Below are positions 13,279 through 19,520 of a stretch of DNA of 53,718 nucleotides, piece by piece (positions within the stretch are counted from its first letter, which is position 1; each line of letters starts with the position of its first letter). The stretch lies in IMG/VR virus record IMGVR_UViG_3300030107_001340, positions 1 through 53,718 of that record; one strand, given 5' to 3'. The position numbers and the translations under genes are program-made. Under the pieces are notes generated by a model, which saw nothing but the letters and a program-made list of their open reading frames with translations, did no database searches and had not been told where the DNA came from. This stretch comes from a virus (lineage: Duplodnaviria; Caudoviricetes).

Positions 13279-13544
13279 TAGTCTTCTCCTTCTTGCAAAT
13301 GTCCAACCTTGGACAACTGATAGTTAGTTATGTATGGTTGTTGTGTTAGTTTAAGAAAGTTTTCTAGAACATCTTTCAATCCCTTACCATCTAGATCAAA
13401 GATGGGGCCGACCTGTCCTTTACAATCATTTTGAGACATGAGCATTACTTCAACTCTTTGACATTTGCTATCTTTAGGTTGAATGATAGATAAAAAATAT
13501 CTATCCCCCATGTTTAGTATTATTCTGTTAAATGTTTCAGTCAT
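13278..13544 (-). CDS. hypothetical early protein
   Basis: 88-aa ORF; its C-terminus (LSKVGH) is encoded by the 16-bp repeat. Confidence 0.7.
   Translation of the reverse strand: MTETFNRIILNMGDRYFLSIIQPKDSKCQRVEVMLMSQNDCKGQVGPIFDLDGKGLKDVLENFLKLTQQPYITNYQLSKVGHLQEGED
13300..13315. repeat. 16-bp inverted repeat TGTCCAACCTTGGACA, copy 1
   Basis: Exact match; just upstream of the RBS of the DUF932-like gene. Confidence 0.95.
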
Positions 13545-13764
13545 TACTTTCTACCTCAATCATCTTGGATATTTTCTCCTCTATTGTCATTACCTTTTCA
13601 CCCTCAATCATGTCTATAATAAGATTAGTTATATCAATTTCTTTCTGAAGTATACTAACCTTTTTTACAAGGCGAGTCAGGGCTTCTTGATAGTACTCTA
13701 ACTCTTGCTCTTTACGCAAGCGAGACTCAATCAAATCCGACAGACTCACAATGTTATCAGTCAC
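13537..13764 (-). CDS. coiled-coil hypothetical protein
   Basis: 75-aa ORF, GTG start. Confidence 0.7.
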   Translation of the reverse strand: MTDNIVSLSDLIESRLRKEQELEYYQEALTRLVKKVSILQKEIDITNLIIDMIEGEKVMTIEEKISKMIEVESND

Positions 13765-13797
13765 AACAGCAACCCTATTAAAATTCCAATAATAAAC

Positions 13798-13986
13798 TCA
13801 ACCATCTTCCGCACTTTCTTCTAGCTCATTCAATCTATGCTTTAGTGTATTGATAGTAGTATGGATGTGTCCTTGTCCACCTATGTTTGGATCAATCAAG
13901 TCGCTTAGATATTCAATTTCAATCTTTAAATGTTGTATATGATACCAATTATTAAACATACCAGTAACTGTTTTTGTATTTCTCAT
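13798..13986 (-). CDS. hypothetical early protein
   Basis: 62-aa ORF with GAGGA RBS. Confidence 0.7.
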   Translation of the reverse strand: MRNTKTVTGMFNNWYHIQHLKIEIEYLSDLIDPNIGGQGHIHTTINTLKHRLNELEESAEDG

Positions 13987-13987
13987 C

Positions 13988-14164
13988 TTAGCTATCCTCT
14001 TTCATTATCTGTTCAATGTGCCAGTGTAACATATCAGTAGTAGTTTTAACGTCATCAATGAACTCAGGTGTGTTACCTTTTGCATAAACCTTCAGCAACT
14101 CGATCTCATCACGCAGCACATGAACGTGATTGAATAATCGTGTGTCTAATTCTTTCTTTGTCAC
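13988..14164 (-). CDS. 58-aa hypothetical protein (not in ORF track), probable paralog of 13798-13986
   Basis: GTG start with AAGGAG RBS; HVHVLRDEIELL...VKTTTDMLHWHIEQI. Confidence 0.65.
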   Translation of the reverse strand: MTKKELDTRLFNHVHVLRDEIELLKVYAKGNTPEFIDDVKTTTDMLHWHIEQIMKEDS

Positions 14165-14279
14165 TGTGTCTCTCCTTATCTACCTTGATCCAACAATAGC
14201 AACACACAGCTTTGCCGTCGAGTAACACACCCTTTTCGCCACGTTGACCAATGTCCCTCTTACATTTGGGACAGTCCAT
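14109..14279 (-). CDS. small putative zinc-finger protein
   Basis: MDCPKC...VCCYCW; GAGG RBS; overlaps the next ORF by 56 nt. Confidence 0.45.
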   Translation of the reverse strand: MDCPKCKRDIGQRGEKGVLLDGKAVCCYCWIKVDKERHSDKERIRHTIIQSRSCAA

Positions 14280-14280
14280 T

Positions 14281-14526
14281 CTACCTCGCTCTCTTGATTG
14301 TGTACTCTGTGTTATTGAAAGAGGTTACACGATATAGGTTCCAAAATGGATTGCCATAGTATCGTATGCGTAAGCCATCATTTATCTGAAAGAACTTACC
14401 ACTCTTACTTGGTCCTACATAGTGTTTACCCATGCAGTTATACTGTCTAAAGTTAGTCCTATCTATGGACGGCTTCTGTCCTGTCAGCTTCATCTTGAGT
14501 AATGCTAGTTTAACTTTAATGCTCAT
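14281..14526 (-). CDS. basic hypothetical early protein
   Basis: 81 aa, AAGGAG RBS, own promoter upstream. Confidence 0.75.
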   Translation of the reverse strand: MSIKVKLALLKMKLTGQKPSIDRTNFRQYNCMGKHYVGPSKSGKFFQINDGLRIRYYGNPFWNLYRVTSFNNTEYTIKRAR

Positions 14527-14555
14527 TTTGTTTTCTCCTTATTGTTTATACAAGA

Positions 14556-14584
14556 AGTATACACAAGTTATAGGTTACTGTCAA
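14556..14584 (-). promoter_or_regulatory. sigma70-type promoter
   Basis: TTGACA-17 nt-TATACT on the minus strand. Confidence 0.8.
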
Positions 14585-14591
14585 GTCTCAT

Positions 14592-15002
14592 TTAAAATGT
14601 CCAACCTTGGACATTCTCACGCTCATATGGTTTATCTGAGTTAGCTTTGGGAAATCTTTTGTCACCCTTCAAAGCGTCAATCAATCTACGCCTAGATTGC
14701 TCCTCTTCTGAAAAGTAATTTTTGTTTATGTGATTGATATATGACTTATCATAGGCAGGTTCTCTTATGCCCGTTCTGTGTAAGTGTCTTTGTATCGGAT
14801 CAGGAACACAGCCTCCACCTTTATTCTTATGCCCTAAAACTTTGTTCTTATTTAAATGAAGAGATGGCATACGTTTGTTAAGAATACTAGCTATCTCAGT
14901 AGCCGTGTAGCGAGGTTTGCCAGTATTAATATCAATAACGGCGGTTAAATCCATGATCCATTGAAATAATTCTTTCGGATATTTACTGCGTCTTTCCTTC
15001 AT
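14592..15002 (-). CDS. putative HTH protein, GcrA N-terminus-like
   Basis: TATEIASILN...LNKNKVLGHKNK resembles the GcrA SASQIA...VTRNAVIGK pattern; ends NVQGWTF, encoded by the repeat. Confidence 0.45.
   Translation of the reverse strand: MKERRSKYPKELFQWIMDLTAVIDINTGKPRYTATEIASILNKRMPSLHLNKNKVLGHKNKGGGCVPDPIQRHLHRTGIREPAYDKSYINHINKNYFSEEEQSRRRLIDALKGDKRFPKANSDKPYERENVQGWTF
14598..14613. repeat. 16-bp inverted repeat, copy 2
   Basis: Exact match, extends to AATGTCCAA-CC-TTGGACATT; 13 bp upstream of a -35 box. Confidence 0.95.
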
Positions 15003-15017
15003 TTGTTTATCTCCATC

Positions 15018-15284
15018 CTAAAAGTTTACTTCTTGTGTTATGTTATTCTGTTTAAATGTTCTACGCAAGCAGTTCCTAGCACTAATAATGTGATAGTCTA
15101 ATGATCTAGGTGAACTACTTAGCACCTGTATGATACGGACTTTTTTACCTTGGTCATTTAGCATTGTCCACGATACTTTTATGTGTGTGTTATGTATCAC
15201 AACAAAAGATGTAGGTGGATCAGCGTATGCTTTCATTGCTTTAATTATTTTCCTTGTCTGTTTTGTTTTCATAGTCATGGTCAT
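15018..15284 (-). CDS. hypothetical protein, possible HicA-like fold
   Basis: HIKV...VLSSSPRS...NCLRR pattern. Confidence 0.4.
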   Translation of the reverse strand: MTMTMKTKQTRKIIKAMKAYADPPTSFVVIHNTHIKVSWTMLNDQGKKVRIIQVLSSSPRSLDYHIISARNCLRRTFKQNNITQEVNF

Positions 15285-18285: not shown

Positions 18286-18301
18286 TGTCCAACCTTGGAC
18301 A
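18286..18301. repeat. 16-bp inverted repeat, copy 6
   Basis: Exact match, 2 nt after the stop at 18304. Confidence 0.95.
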
Positions 18302-18303
18302 TA

Positions 18304-18507
18304 TTACAGCAAGCCTTTATCAATTAATCGCTGACGCATTTCTGCCAGTTTTTGATTTGCGTCATGCTCGCGTTTGCGCTCTTTATAATCGACAACACTA
18401 CCGCTTAACGAACCTTCACCACCCGATTTACTACGTGGTATTCTAGGCCAAGCCGATTTTAATTTGTATACTTCGCGAACCATTATACCACCATGTTTTC
18501 TAGACAT
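18304..18507 (-). CDS. basic hypothetical early protein
   Basis: Likely start MSRKHGG downstream of repeat copy 7. Confidence 0.6.
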   Translation of the reverse strand: MSRKHGGIMVREVYKLKSAWPRIPRSKSGGEGSLSGSVVDYKERKREHDANQKLAEMRQRLIDKGLL

Positions 18508-18511
18508 TTTA

Positions 18512-18703
18512 TCAACCCCTGTCAGATTGTCCAACCTTGGACATTTTTAGAAACATAAAAACACACATAAACCCAAAACCTACCCCGCACGAAATCAGCA
18601 AGGCTAAAATATGGGGTTGGTTTGCTGGCACGTTATCAGCCCAGTACATACAGCCGATTGATAGGGCAAAAAATAACACGCCTAGAAAATCGTATTTATT
18701 CAT
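18512..18703 (-). CDS. two-TM membrane protein
   Basis: Two hydrophobic helices, AGGAG RBS; C-terminus MSKVGQ encoded by the repeat. Confidence 0.7.
   Translation of the reverse strand: MNKYDFLGVLFFALSIGCMYWADNVPANQPHILALLISCGVGFGFMCVFMFLKMSKVGQSDRG
18528..18543. repeat. 16-bp inverted repeat, copy 7
   Basis: Exact match. Confidence 0.95.
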
Positions 18704-18747
18704 TTTTAAAACTCCTATTTTTGTTTCTCATTGTCACAATATAAAAC

Positions 18748-18776
18748 ACGTTACCCCATGTTTTATATTCTAGCAA
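18748..18776 (-). promoter_or_regulatory. possible promoter overlapped by an 11-bp inverted repeat
   Basis: TTGCTA-17 nt-TAACGT; AATATAAAACA (18738-48) / TGTTTTATATT (18759-69). Confidence 0.45.
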
Positions 18777-18781
18777 TAGGG

Positions 18782-18815
18782 AAAATAGGGGTGACAAATA
18801 GCCACCCCTTATTTT
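18782..18815 (-). terminator. intrinsic terminator after 18819-19361
   Basis: Minus strand AGGGGTGGC-TATTT-GTCACCCCT-ATTTT. Confidence 0.7.
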
Positions 18816-18818
18816 AGA

Positions 18819-19361
18819 TTATGCTGCTTTTTTAGTTGGAACCATTGCCATTTTCAACATGGTTTTCTCGCCTAGTAATGGGCGGAAAACATCAGCAACC
18901 GGGACATCATTTTTTTCGCACCATGAGGCAACGAATGCCGACATTTCAATAGCGGTCATACCCTCAGGCAATGCTTCAGATAATTCGGGAGTGCTATCAC
19001 CCTCCGATTTTTCCCCTTGTGATGTTTCACCCTTGGCTGGTTTATTCAGTTTCCGGTATTCATTTAAAAACCCATGGACTGAGCTAAACCGACCAGATCT
19101 GTACAATTCCCAAAATCCGGTAAAATCATTTTGTATTATAGATAATAACTTTCCAGCGTCGGAGCGTCGTCGACGATCAATAAATTGCAAACCATATTCA
19201 ACTAACATTTTCTGAGATACCGATTTTTTATCCCCTTTTATGTGTGCAAGTATTCTTGCCAATCGGAGGATAGAAGAAAATTTATTGGCCTTTGCGTTTT
19301 CCAATGCTTTTTCTTGTCTCTTAGTTATTACCAGAGCGTTTTTGAATTGTGCGTTTTGCAT
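18819..19361 (-). CDS. first early gene, basic helical protein, possible DNA-binding
   Basis: 180 aa, AAGGA RBS, own promoter and terminator; IDRRRRSDA segment. Confidence 0.75.
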   Translation of the reverse strand: MQNAQFKNALVITKRQEKALENAKANKFSSILRLARILAHIKGDKKSVSQKMLVEYGLQFIDRRRRSDAGKLLSIIQNDFTGFWELYRSGRFSSVHGFLNEYRKLNKPAKGETSQGEKSEGDSTPELSEALPEGMTAIEMSAFVASWCEKNDVPVADVFRPLLGEKTMLKMAMVPTKKAA

Positions 19362-19405
19362 GATGCATATCCTTATGTTTAGTTGTTTAAGTAAGTAACA
19401 ACCTC

Positions 19406-19433
19406 AGATTAGCAAAATCAGATATCTTGTAAA
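19406..19433 (-). promoter_or_regulatory. probable promoter of the first early gene
   Basis: TTTACA-16 nt-TAATCT with extended -10 TG. Confidence 0.5.
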
Positions 19434-19504
19434 CAAAAAAATATTCAACCTGTGGATAACTTTTACAAGTCATTGTTTTTATTACATAAATCAGAATAAA
19501 AAAA

Positions 19505-19520
19505 TGTCCAAGGTTGGACA
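19505..19520. repeat. 16-bp inverted repeat, copy 8 (opposite orientation, TGTCCAAGGTTGGACA)
   Basis: Exact reverse complement of the other seven. Confidence 0.95.

Follow-up and report, generated by a model that had tools for sequence, protein, structure and literature searches.

The window analysed here, IMGVR_UViG_3300030107_001340, is the whole 53,718-bp record of a virus and is a complete HMO-2011-type podophage genome (38.5% G+C, direct terminal repeats); motif counts made on the record and on the window are equal. Its early-gene region is punctuated by eight exact copies of a 16-bp palindrome, TGTCCAA-CC-TTGGACA. On comparative sequence grounds, we tentatively favour the view that this array is an operator array for the product of the first early gene, by which the early genes could be controlled in a co-ordinate manner. 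This view draws on the array itself and its placement, on its spread throughout the family, on its concerted and compensated variants, and on the way in which it co-occurs and, at the level of residues, co-varies with the first early protein.

The palindrome array of the window

An exact scan of the whole record finds the palindrome at each of the eight starts given in the initial annotation, namely 13300, 14598, 15453, 15799, 17369, 18286 and 18528 on the + strand and 19505 on the - strand, and nowhere else in the genome, as had been noticed by eye; 100 dinucleotide-preserving shuffles contained no copy. A scan allowing up to three mismatches adds a single, degenerate copy. Genes from position 1 to 19361 are all on the - strand, so that the seven first copies are read with a GG centre in the coding orientation; the eighth, in the divergent region, also has a GG centre, on the + strand. 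The copies are listed below on the strand that reads GG.

13300..13315 (-): motif copy 1, overlapping the last codons of the open reading frame (ORF) 13278-13544(-), 21 nt upstream of the start (ATG) of the DUF932 gene 12406-13278(-)
14598..14613 (-): motif copy 2, within the 3' end of ORF 14592-15002(-), 13 nt upstream of the -35 hexamer of a sigma-70-like promoter at 14584-14556
15453..15468 (-): motif copy 3, immediately following a tRNA-like 3' fragment
15799..15814 (-): motif copy 4, abutted by a ribosome-binding site, with an ATG 14 nt downstream
17369..17384 (-): motif copy 5, beginning one base past the stop codon of gene 17385-18119(-)
18286..18301 (-): motif copy 6
18528..18543 (-): motif copy 7, which overlaps the final codons of the short ORF 18512-18703(-), with the next ATG 20 nt downstream
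19505..19520 (+): motif copy 8, in the divergent control region, in the leader of the first early gene, followed on the - strand by a run of seven T
6138..6153 (strand not assigned): degenerate copy with two mismatches, inside the conserved gene 5468-6319(-)
13279..20153 (-): hypervariable early region, in which no ORF has a tblastn match in HMO-2011

As both flanks of the last feature are syntenic with HMO-2011 and its interior is without match, the array fills exactly the hypervariable early region. Within it, placement is regular. A start codon (of an ORF of at least 25 amino acids) lies 14-33 nt downstream of six of the seven leftward copies, with a ribosome-binding site between, and a sigma-70-like promoter follows the copy at 14598, which bears out the initial claim that the copies precede the next ribosome-binding site or promoter. 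Several copies start 0-3 nt from the stop codon before them or extend into the final codons of the ORF upstream; the four peptides that had been quoted for such overlaps are correct, and they represent two reading frames.

Some simple explanations of the motif were set aside. An intrinsic terminator would have a G+C-rich stem and a T-run on the transcribed strand, but only three of the six pairs of the window stem are G-C, and a short T-run (4-5 T) on the coding strand follows only three of the seven leftward copies (14598, 17369 and, weakly, 13300). The right arm resembles the -35 hexamer of a host sigma-70 promoter, but most copies are without a -10 element at the right distance. Each window copy could also start a mini-ORF (an ATG- or TTG-initiated SKVG... 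peptide), but most copies in relatives are preceded by C. As to a promoter for a phage RNA polymerase, a search for the T7-type enzyme (PF00940) in five records gave no match and is uninformative, as its controls were silent too.

The gene that holds the degenerate copy belongs to the replication module and is a homologue of HMO-2011 gp14; a copy is also seen in the CRP-345 record at 14469-14482, at the apparent counterpart of window 6138-6153.

Spread and variants of the element among relatives

The DNA polymerase of the window shares 72% identity with its counterpart in Puniceispirillum phage HMO-2011 and 64-67% with those in Roseobacter phages CRP-345 and CRP-1, and arrays equivalent to that of the window are found in all three isolates as well as in viral contigs. 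CRP-345 and CRP-1 carry the window's arms. HMO-2011 has no copy of these arms and five copies of a different palindrome, TAGTCCG-ACAG/CTGT-CGGACTA, which are placed alike, between a stop codon and a ribosome-binding site with its ATG. The general form of the element is (T/C)GTCC-N6-GGAC(A/G). With its centre left free, the palindrome pattern is present in many viral contigs, among them 29 loci with 2-7 copies (at most one arm mismatch) spanning 37-63% G+C.

The arms vary in a compensated manner. The pairs TGTCCAA/TTGGACA, TGTCCGA/TCGGACA, CGTCCTA/TAGGACA and TAGTCCG/CGGACTA all keep GTCC...GGAC at the same spacing, and further lineages have TGTCCGA-YR-TCGGACA, CGTCCTA-CC-TAGGACA or AAGTCCAA-NN-TTGGACC. 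Every variant thus retains GTCC-N6-GGAC, and a change in one arm is mirrored in the other. The centre is freer. The CC/GG core, initially described as invariant, is so within the window genome; in relatives it is replaced by TG, CA, CG, GG, CC, GC, AT and others, it varies between the copies of one genome in many genomes, and in some lineages it is fully symmetric. The fixed polarity attributed to this core likewise holds for the window genome only and becomes, in relatives, an orientation bias. Among 282 distinct but related, non-independent sites oriented with respect to transcription, the centre is TG in 159 and CA in 32 (about 5:1), and the outer base is C..A in 180 and T..G in 19 (about 9:1). 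Both centre orientations can be present within one operon, as in locus L174.

In relatives the copies are part of a conserved junction of about 45 nt, composed of a stop codon, 2-3 nt, the palindrome, a CTTTAAACGGAG-like ribosome-binding site and ATG. The distance from motif to start codon has a median of 19 nt in the 156 of the 282 sites for which a Shine-Dalgarno sequence and a start were detected by pattern. The predicted hairpin energies of the sites range from -6.5 to -8.9 kcal/mol.

A copy is also present in the integrase gene of CRP-345-type relatives: in CRP-345 itself (L155) it is at 7079-7094, has a GG centre and encodes LSKVGR, and it is likewise found in CRP-1, L111, L183, L190 and L216. 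It is unchanged even in L183, whose array has switched to another arm variant (GA, see below), and the window integrase has MSTMGR at that place, without a copy. The integrase-gene copy is possibly a coding coincidence.

The window's arms (at most one arm mismatch) are also found before genes in otherwise unrelated contigs: 12 copies in G001 (46.5% G+C), six in L084 (53%), and 31 and 10 in G003 and G004 (62-63% G+C). G001 (L041) is a complete 54.7-kb phage genome, in which three tandem copies, 27 bp apart, stand at the head of an early operon (6455-6525). G003 and G004 (L044-L047) come from one sample, and their contig ends overlap at the protein level; together they hold about 40 copies, mostly with a GC centre, before most genes and on both strands, and constitute a genome-wide version of the array in an unrelated phage.

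Co-occurrence and co-variation with the first early protein

The candidate reader of the motif is the product of the first early gene.

18819..19361 (-): first early gene, encoding a protein of 180 amino acids, the candidate motif reader, with a helical N-domain, a disordered linker (about residues 110-131) and a small helical C-domain

Already named as a possible binding protein in the initial annotation, this product belongs to a family that co-occurs with the arrays. Its peptide pattern IDRRRR[SA][ED]A led to 76 viral-contig loci, of which 75 have at least two GTCC-N6-GGAC sites, with 371 sites in total against about 12 expected. At least one copy with the window's own arms is present in 62 of the 76 loci, and three or more in 55. 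Among 11 complete isolate genomes of the group, the family is found in HMO-2011 (as gp74), CRP-345 (as gp01) and CRP-1, which have 5-6 sites each, and the eight genomes without it have 0-1.

The copies of one genome change together. L190 (inner part AACGTT) and L174 (GAYRTC) are collinear and 92.7% identical over 9.4 kb; all five orthologous copies nevertheless differ in their inner arms, with the 40-60 nt on either side almost identical. GA and AA inner-arm variants are mixed in only four of the 76 loci, and the GA variant requires at least six changes on a quick maximum-likelihood tree of 73 family proteins. Copies that switch together, unlike independent hairpins, are expected to be matched to a common reader or to each other.

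This concerted change bears on the possibility that the motif is a protein-independent RNA hairpin, which between cistrons would direct RNase processing, stabilise 5' ends or act as a terminator of low strength. The sites are indeed intergenic and hairpin-forming, a loose terminator pattern is matched by four of the eight window copies on one or the other strand, and in some relatives a transcript started from a -10-like box about 15 nt upstream would begin with the hairpin. Hairpins of this kind should however drift independently, whereas within a genome all copies are alike, and from one genome to another they change as a set; the sequence of GTCC/GGAC does not vary, and, besides the rarity of T-runs after the leftward copies noted above, the seven-T run of the copy at 19505 is on the - strand. 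We give this explanation little credence.

A protein that tracks the arm variant was sought among 27 protein families encoded within 7 kb and present in at least six GA and at least ten AA loci, by scanning their alignments for columns that separate the two classes. The only perfect columns are those encoded by the motif itself, and, apart from these, no associated column was found among the 27 families outside the first early protein family. In the latter, three columns are associated. They fall in one helix, the last of the N-domain, some 40 residues before the place of a motif copy that lies within the gene.

Column 248: T in 73 of 75 AA-arm loci; S in 10 of 10 GA-arm loci
Column 252 (from aligned helix segments, without tally): usually A in AA-arm loci; K in GA-arm loci
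Column 255: R or K in 72 of 75 AA-arm loci; N, A, S or Y in 10 of 10 GA-arm loci

By alignment, the three columns correspond to H96, N100 and R103 of the window protein. The pattern holds in each of about five separate GA clades when these are compared with their nearest AA relatives. The very distant HMO-2011, which has G at the same arm position, also has K at column 252 and, at column 255, a residue that is not basic.

The first early protein

The family comprises members of about 200 residues, and a profile search retrieved 145 cluster representatives at E<=0.001 among 1.84 billion. In alignment A1, D62-R63-R64-R65 of the N-domain is invariant, and this arginine-rich stretch is the most conserved feature of the protein. 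In many relatives the first early gene carries an in-frame motif copy in its linker, at the domain boundary, where it encodes (V/P)SNVGQS(E/D); this signature is present in 21 of 116 full-length representatives of the wider family.

Sequence searches provide no annotation for the family. The window protein has no Pfam hit (E<=0.01) and no PHROG match; a profile of 117 family members, compared with all PDB sequences, has an unrelated protein as its best match (E-value 0.067); and a Pfam scan of the same 117 members (E<=0.1) shows neither a ParB family nor PF01818 among the 25 most frequent families. A feature search of the ESM Atlas gave a RegA-type translation repressor as its top named cluster (score 0.91, 135 of 256 features), which we take as a lead only.

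Two AlphaFold models, computed from alignments of 21 and 117 rows, are both all-helical, with six helices in the N-domain, three in the C-domain and a disordered linker (110-131) between them; the second has a mean pLDDT (predicted local distance difference test) of 74, rising to about 90 over residues 31-100. When the two models were structurally aligned with 48,161 chains, the operator-bound DNA-binding domain of KorB (1r71_A; Z 5.9 and 6.2) ranked first each time, and a second KorB entry scores Z 4.3-4.5. The alignment with 1r71_A covers 89 residues (residues 5-112, the whole N-domain) at a root-mean-square deviation of 3.4 A and is weak; as the tool warns that a Z under 8 may reflect a common helical arrangement, the match is treated as a lead. 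Judged from where this alignment starts and ends, the helix that co-varies would lie close to the final helix of the KorB domain. KorB being a ParB-family protein, the loose likeness to parS proposed in the initial annotation gains something from this weak best fold match, but a ParB N-terminal domain was not detected.

A model of early control and the points against it

The signals that a control circuit could use are the following.

19698..19726 (-): sigma-70-like leftward promoter, TTGACG-17-CATAAT, 10 of 12 consensus matches
19945..19973 (+): sigma-70-like rightward promoter, TTGACA-17-TATAAT, 12 of 12 consensus matches
14556..14584 (-): sigma-70-like promoter, TTGACA-17-TATACT, 11 of 12 matches, from consensus match
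18787..18809 (-): strong terminator-like hairpin directly after the first early gene, nine pairs (six G-C), from pattern match

Genes are directed leftward up to 19361 and rightward from 20154, and the control region lies between them. In contigs of four marine metagenome runs, by far the highest depth is reached at window 19658-19911 and 20166-20400, so that within the control region these stretches are the best conserved among relatives; the leftward promoter-like site lies in the first of them. RNA folding of the conserved stretch 19655-19915 gave no structure signal (z = 0.38). Promoter-like sites in the early region number 16, against 27.5 expected from shuffles. A DnaA-box-like nonamer, TTATCCACA, is also seen in the divergent control region at about 19440-19460 (-), between the first early gene and copy 8.

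In the model that we favour, the first early protein would be made first, from the leftward promoter (19726-19698) of the divergent control region, and would then bind the copies that lie between a stop codon and the next ribosome-binding site, together with the control-region copy at 19520-19505. That the protein binds physically, in what stoichiometry it does so, that it targets DNA and not RNA, and that it represses are all inferred. GTCC and GGAC, the half-sites, have their centres 10 bp, or one helical turn, apart, so that a symmetric dimer on double-stranded DNA is the most likely form of binding. The binding-site array for a dimeric protein suggested in the initial annotation is thus, through co-occurrence and residue co-variation, the best supported of the options it had offered, and the dimer itself is deduced from this spacing. 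The whole variable early gene set could be controlled together in this way, and would most plausibly be shut off, RNA polymerase being blocked once the protein has accumulated. The layout, with the leftward promoter, the leader copy, the first early gene, the terminator-like hairpin and then the remaining early genes mostly behind copies, would be consistent with such a circuit; because of the hairpin, these other early genes would need read-through or promoters of their own. As each copy is part of the conserved junction, new early genes would come under the same control wherever the junction is used.

Several observations weigh against this model. A symmetric DNA site does not need the strand biases described above for the 282 sites (180 vs 19 and 159 vs 32). 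The KorB fold match has a Z under 8; Foldseek gave, for both models, no match in the PDB at E<=0.001, and structural re-alignment (VIA) of Foldseek's own list gave nothing at Z>=5. The three isolates that combine family and sites are the window's closest ones and probably form one clade, so that the result on 11 genomes would count as about one evolutionary event. The co-variation has deep-branch exceptions: L202 (TA arm) and L039 (AA arm) share the same helix, and L133 and G002 have N at the last, usually basic, column yet carry AA arms. Finally, G001, G003, G004 and L084 have the same arms without a family member detectable by hmmsearch at E<=10, and hhalign comparison of the first early proteins of the unrelated contigs with the family gives probabilities of only 0.7% and 0.1%.

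Genetic linkage has also to be considered, as the co-varying codons are only about 110-130 nt from the motif copy embedded in the same gene. Linkage to this near copy explains part of the association. It cannot explain the association with copies 1-2.7 kb away, which lie in otherwise AA-like flanks.

In the unrelated contigs, the reader could have diverged beyond detection, a different protein could read the site, or the function of the site could be independent of the first early protein family. One form of the last possibility is a site for a host protein, for instance a regulator common to marine Alphaproteobacteria. It would explain the use of identical arms by unrelated phages that have no detectable reader in common, and the isolates differ in host as they do in arms: CRP-1 and CRP-345, with the window's arms, infect Rhodobacteraceae (RCA strains), and HMO-2011, with other arms, infects a SAR116 bacterium, Candidatus Puniceispirillum marinum IMCC1322. 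However, phages that are 93% identical differ in all their copies, which would imply a host switch each time, that is at least six on the protein tree, and we know of no regulator with this site. A host-protein site therefore appears very improbable.

DNA or RNA as the target

The same first early protein could alternatively recognise RNA, the palindrome forming a 6-bp stem and tetraloop in the early mRNAs, 5' of the ribosome-binding site, and could repress translation or alter mRNA stability. Such a system would resemble T4 RegA or the coat-protein operators of RNA phages. The tight placement before start codons, the predicted hairpin energies and the strand biases of about 5:1 (centre) and 9:1 (outer base) all agree with an RNA site, and the arginine-rich stretch that is most conserved in the protein, together with the weak ESM Atlas similarity to a RegA-type repressor, agree with an RNA-binding protein. 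However, the outermost pair is C.A on the coding strand in 180 of the 282 sites and cannot pair in mRNA, and GTCC/GGAC is invariant in sequence rather than merely complementary. Some copies are moreover far from start codons (those at 14598 and 19505, and the in-frame copy in the protein's own gene in many relatives), and both centre orientations are tolerated in the single operon of L174. Lastly, PF01818 is missing from the 25 top Pfam families of the 117 members, and the predicted structure is all-helical. Taken together, we regard an RNA target as unlikely, if worth retaining beside the operator array on DNA.

Possible recombination at the junctions

Another proposal is that recombination is primary, the junctions acting either as linkers for cassette exchange, like the PeSL elements discussed below, or as sites of a site-specific recombinase with a matching central hexamer. 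That the array fills exactly the hypervariable region agrees with it, as do the sharing of arms by contigs of 38-63% GC that are otherwise unrelated, the tyrosine integrase gene about 0.9 kb past the last copy and the position of the motif at the domain boundary within the first early gene of many relatives. All copies of a genome switch their central hexamer together, as mutually recombining sites would.

Breakpoints give a divided answer. Among 2,510 non-independent ends of similarity between relatives, 11.2% are within 20 nt of a site, against 5.3%, and 15.7% are within 30 nt, against 7.9%; however, about 84% lie farther than 30 nt from any site, and a 2-fold enrichment could arise from gene boundaries alone. 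Two contig-borne deletions in the window's population (15929>16192 and 16979>17110) are away from the sites. The role of cassette boundary envisaged in the initial annotation is modestly supported by the enrichment of breakpoints within 20-30 nt, about 2-fold, but not by these population deletions. Joined (excised or rearranged) forms at the sites, such as integron attC-like or tyrosine-recombinase core sites would give, are absent among the contigs of four runs, which as contigs drop rare forms. In addition, the differing centres within many genomes would block strict site-specific exchange, and recombination alone leaves the palindromic arms and the residue tracking unexplained. The probability of recombination as the primary function is in our judgement low.

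A broader and speculative version combines exchange and control. In it, unrelated marine phage families (38-63% GC) would share the palindrome and its 45-nt junction as a portable 'socket' into which early genes fit, the invariant GTCC/GGAC arms being read by non-homologous proteins or by a common host factor, and the central hexamer setting compatibility groups, within but not between which cassettes could be swapped. We think it improbable that this is so; if true, some of the most abundant phages of the ocean would combine integron-like exchange with a specificity code resembling immunity.

Comparison with known systems

The operator array that we favour has partial counterparts in other elements. 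The stoperators of Cluster A mycobacteriophages are described as asymmetric 13-mers, bound by a monomer through helix-turn-helix and 'stoperator' domains and distributed genome-wide (PMC9283540). The sites of the L5 gp71-type repressors and the array of the window have in common many copies of a short site in short intergenic spaces, site variants that evolve with the phage lineage and, less clearly, an orientation bias with respect to transcription (in the window, seven copies one way and the divergent-region copy opposite). Unlike stoperators, the window site is a 16-bp inverted repeat with a 2-bp centre, its arms are symmetric in all variants, and it is confined to the early region. Its candidate reader is the product of the first early gene and not a known immunity repressor, and the PDB search (best E-value 0.067) and the Pfam search provided no homology to the L5 repressor.

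KorB and its operator OB on plasmid RK2 (ParB family) are similar in that multiple palindromic operator copies are present on one mobile element, KorB controlling a set of operons. In KorB a flexible linker joins the DNA-binding domain to a small domain at the C-terminus (in part after PMC11790492), and the first early protein shows a comparable succession of a putative DNA-binding domain, a linker and a small C-domain. Unlike KorB, it has no detectable ParB-type N-terminal domain binding cytidine triphosphate (CTP) and no sequence similarity to it; without a detected CTP-binding domain, sliding-clamp spreading is not expected. No partition ATPase was noticed in the window, in which no search was aimed at one.

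PeSL elements of T4-type phages are composite promoter-terminator motifs for which modular shuffling has been proposed (PMC2839356, PMC4122927). Like them, the window element is a short stem-loop motif before small genes of no known function in a hyperplastic region. Unlike them, it is adjoined by a sigma-70-like promoter at no more than two of the eight copies, and it co-varies with a protein.

The last comparison is with phage lambda.

The antitermination protein N of lambda acts at two nut sites, with boxA and a boxB of specific loop. As in lambda, the first early leftward gene of the window encodes an arginine-rich protein, a hairpin-forming site is in the leader and a terminator-like hairpin follows the gene. 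Unlike nut, the motif is present in eight or more copies, its loop (the centre) is variable and both orientations are used, and no homology was found.

Other features of the window

The window encodes an integrase, a DnaB-like helicase, a family-A polymerase and a ribonucleotide reductase. Pfam and PHROGs scans covered 20 of its proteins, and none of the 10 small early ORFs scanned belongs to a DNA-binding family; an Rfam search over 12500-21000 found no family at E<=1.

A tRNA-like 3' fragment, with a T-arm and an acceptor-like end, is located at 15469-15513 (-) and abuts motif copy 3 at 15453. Neither ARAGORN nor Rfam calls it, and exact searches with a 30-nt and a 22-nt part of it gave no hit among 185,579 species genomes. 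The fragment may represent the integrase's attP core and would in that case identify the host.

Close to the beginning of the rightward operon, 21404-22399 (+) encodes a LysM-domain protein whose PHROG matches are endolysin-like, and a 114-residue protein encoded beside it matches the PHROG 'minor head protein and DNA pilot'.

Significance

HMO-2011-type phages are reported to be a dominant and globally distributed marine group (PMC9038755). The exact motif strings were not found in the literature searched, a search that left outside it the original 2013 description of HMO-2011; the main papers searched on the group make no mention of promoters, palindromes or inverted repeats and do not describe the timing of gene expression. 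A multi-copy operator array on a mobile element is a known kind of system. What appears to be new is the site itself and its protein family, together with the confinement to a hypervariable early region and the natural switches of specificity.

The present results provide a cis-element, a candidate family of trans-factors (at least 145 sequence clusters, unannotated) and natural specificity variants with candidate residues, and three cultured phage-host pairs, those of HMO-2011, CRP-1 and CRP-345, carry both motif and protein family. If the operator reading is true, the motif would be a simple marker for the early and control regions of HMO-2011-type phages in viromes, and these phages would offer a case of operator-reader co-evolution outside the mycobacteriophages.

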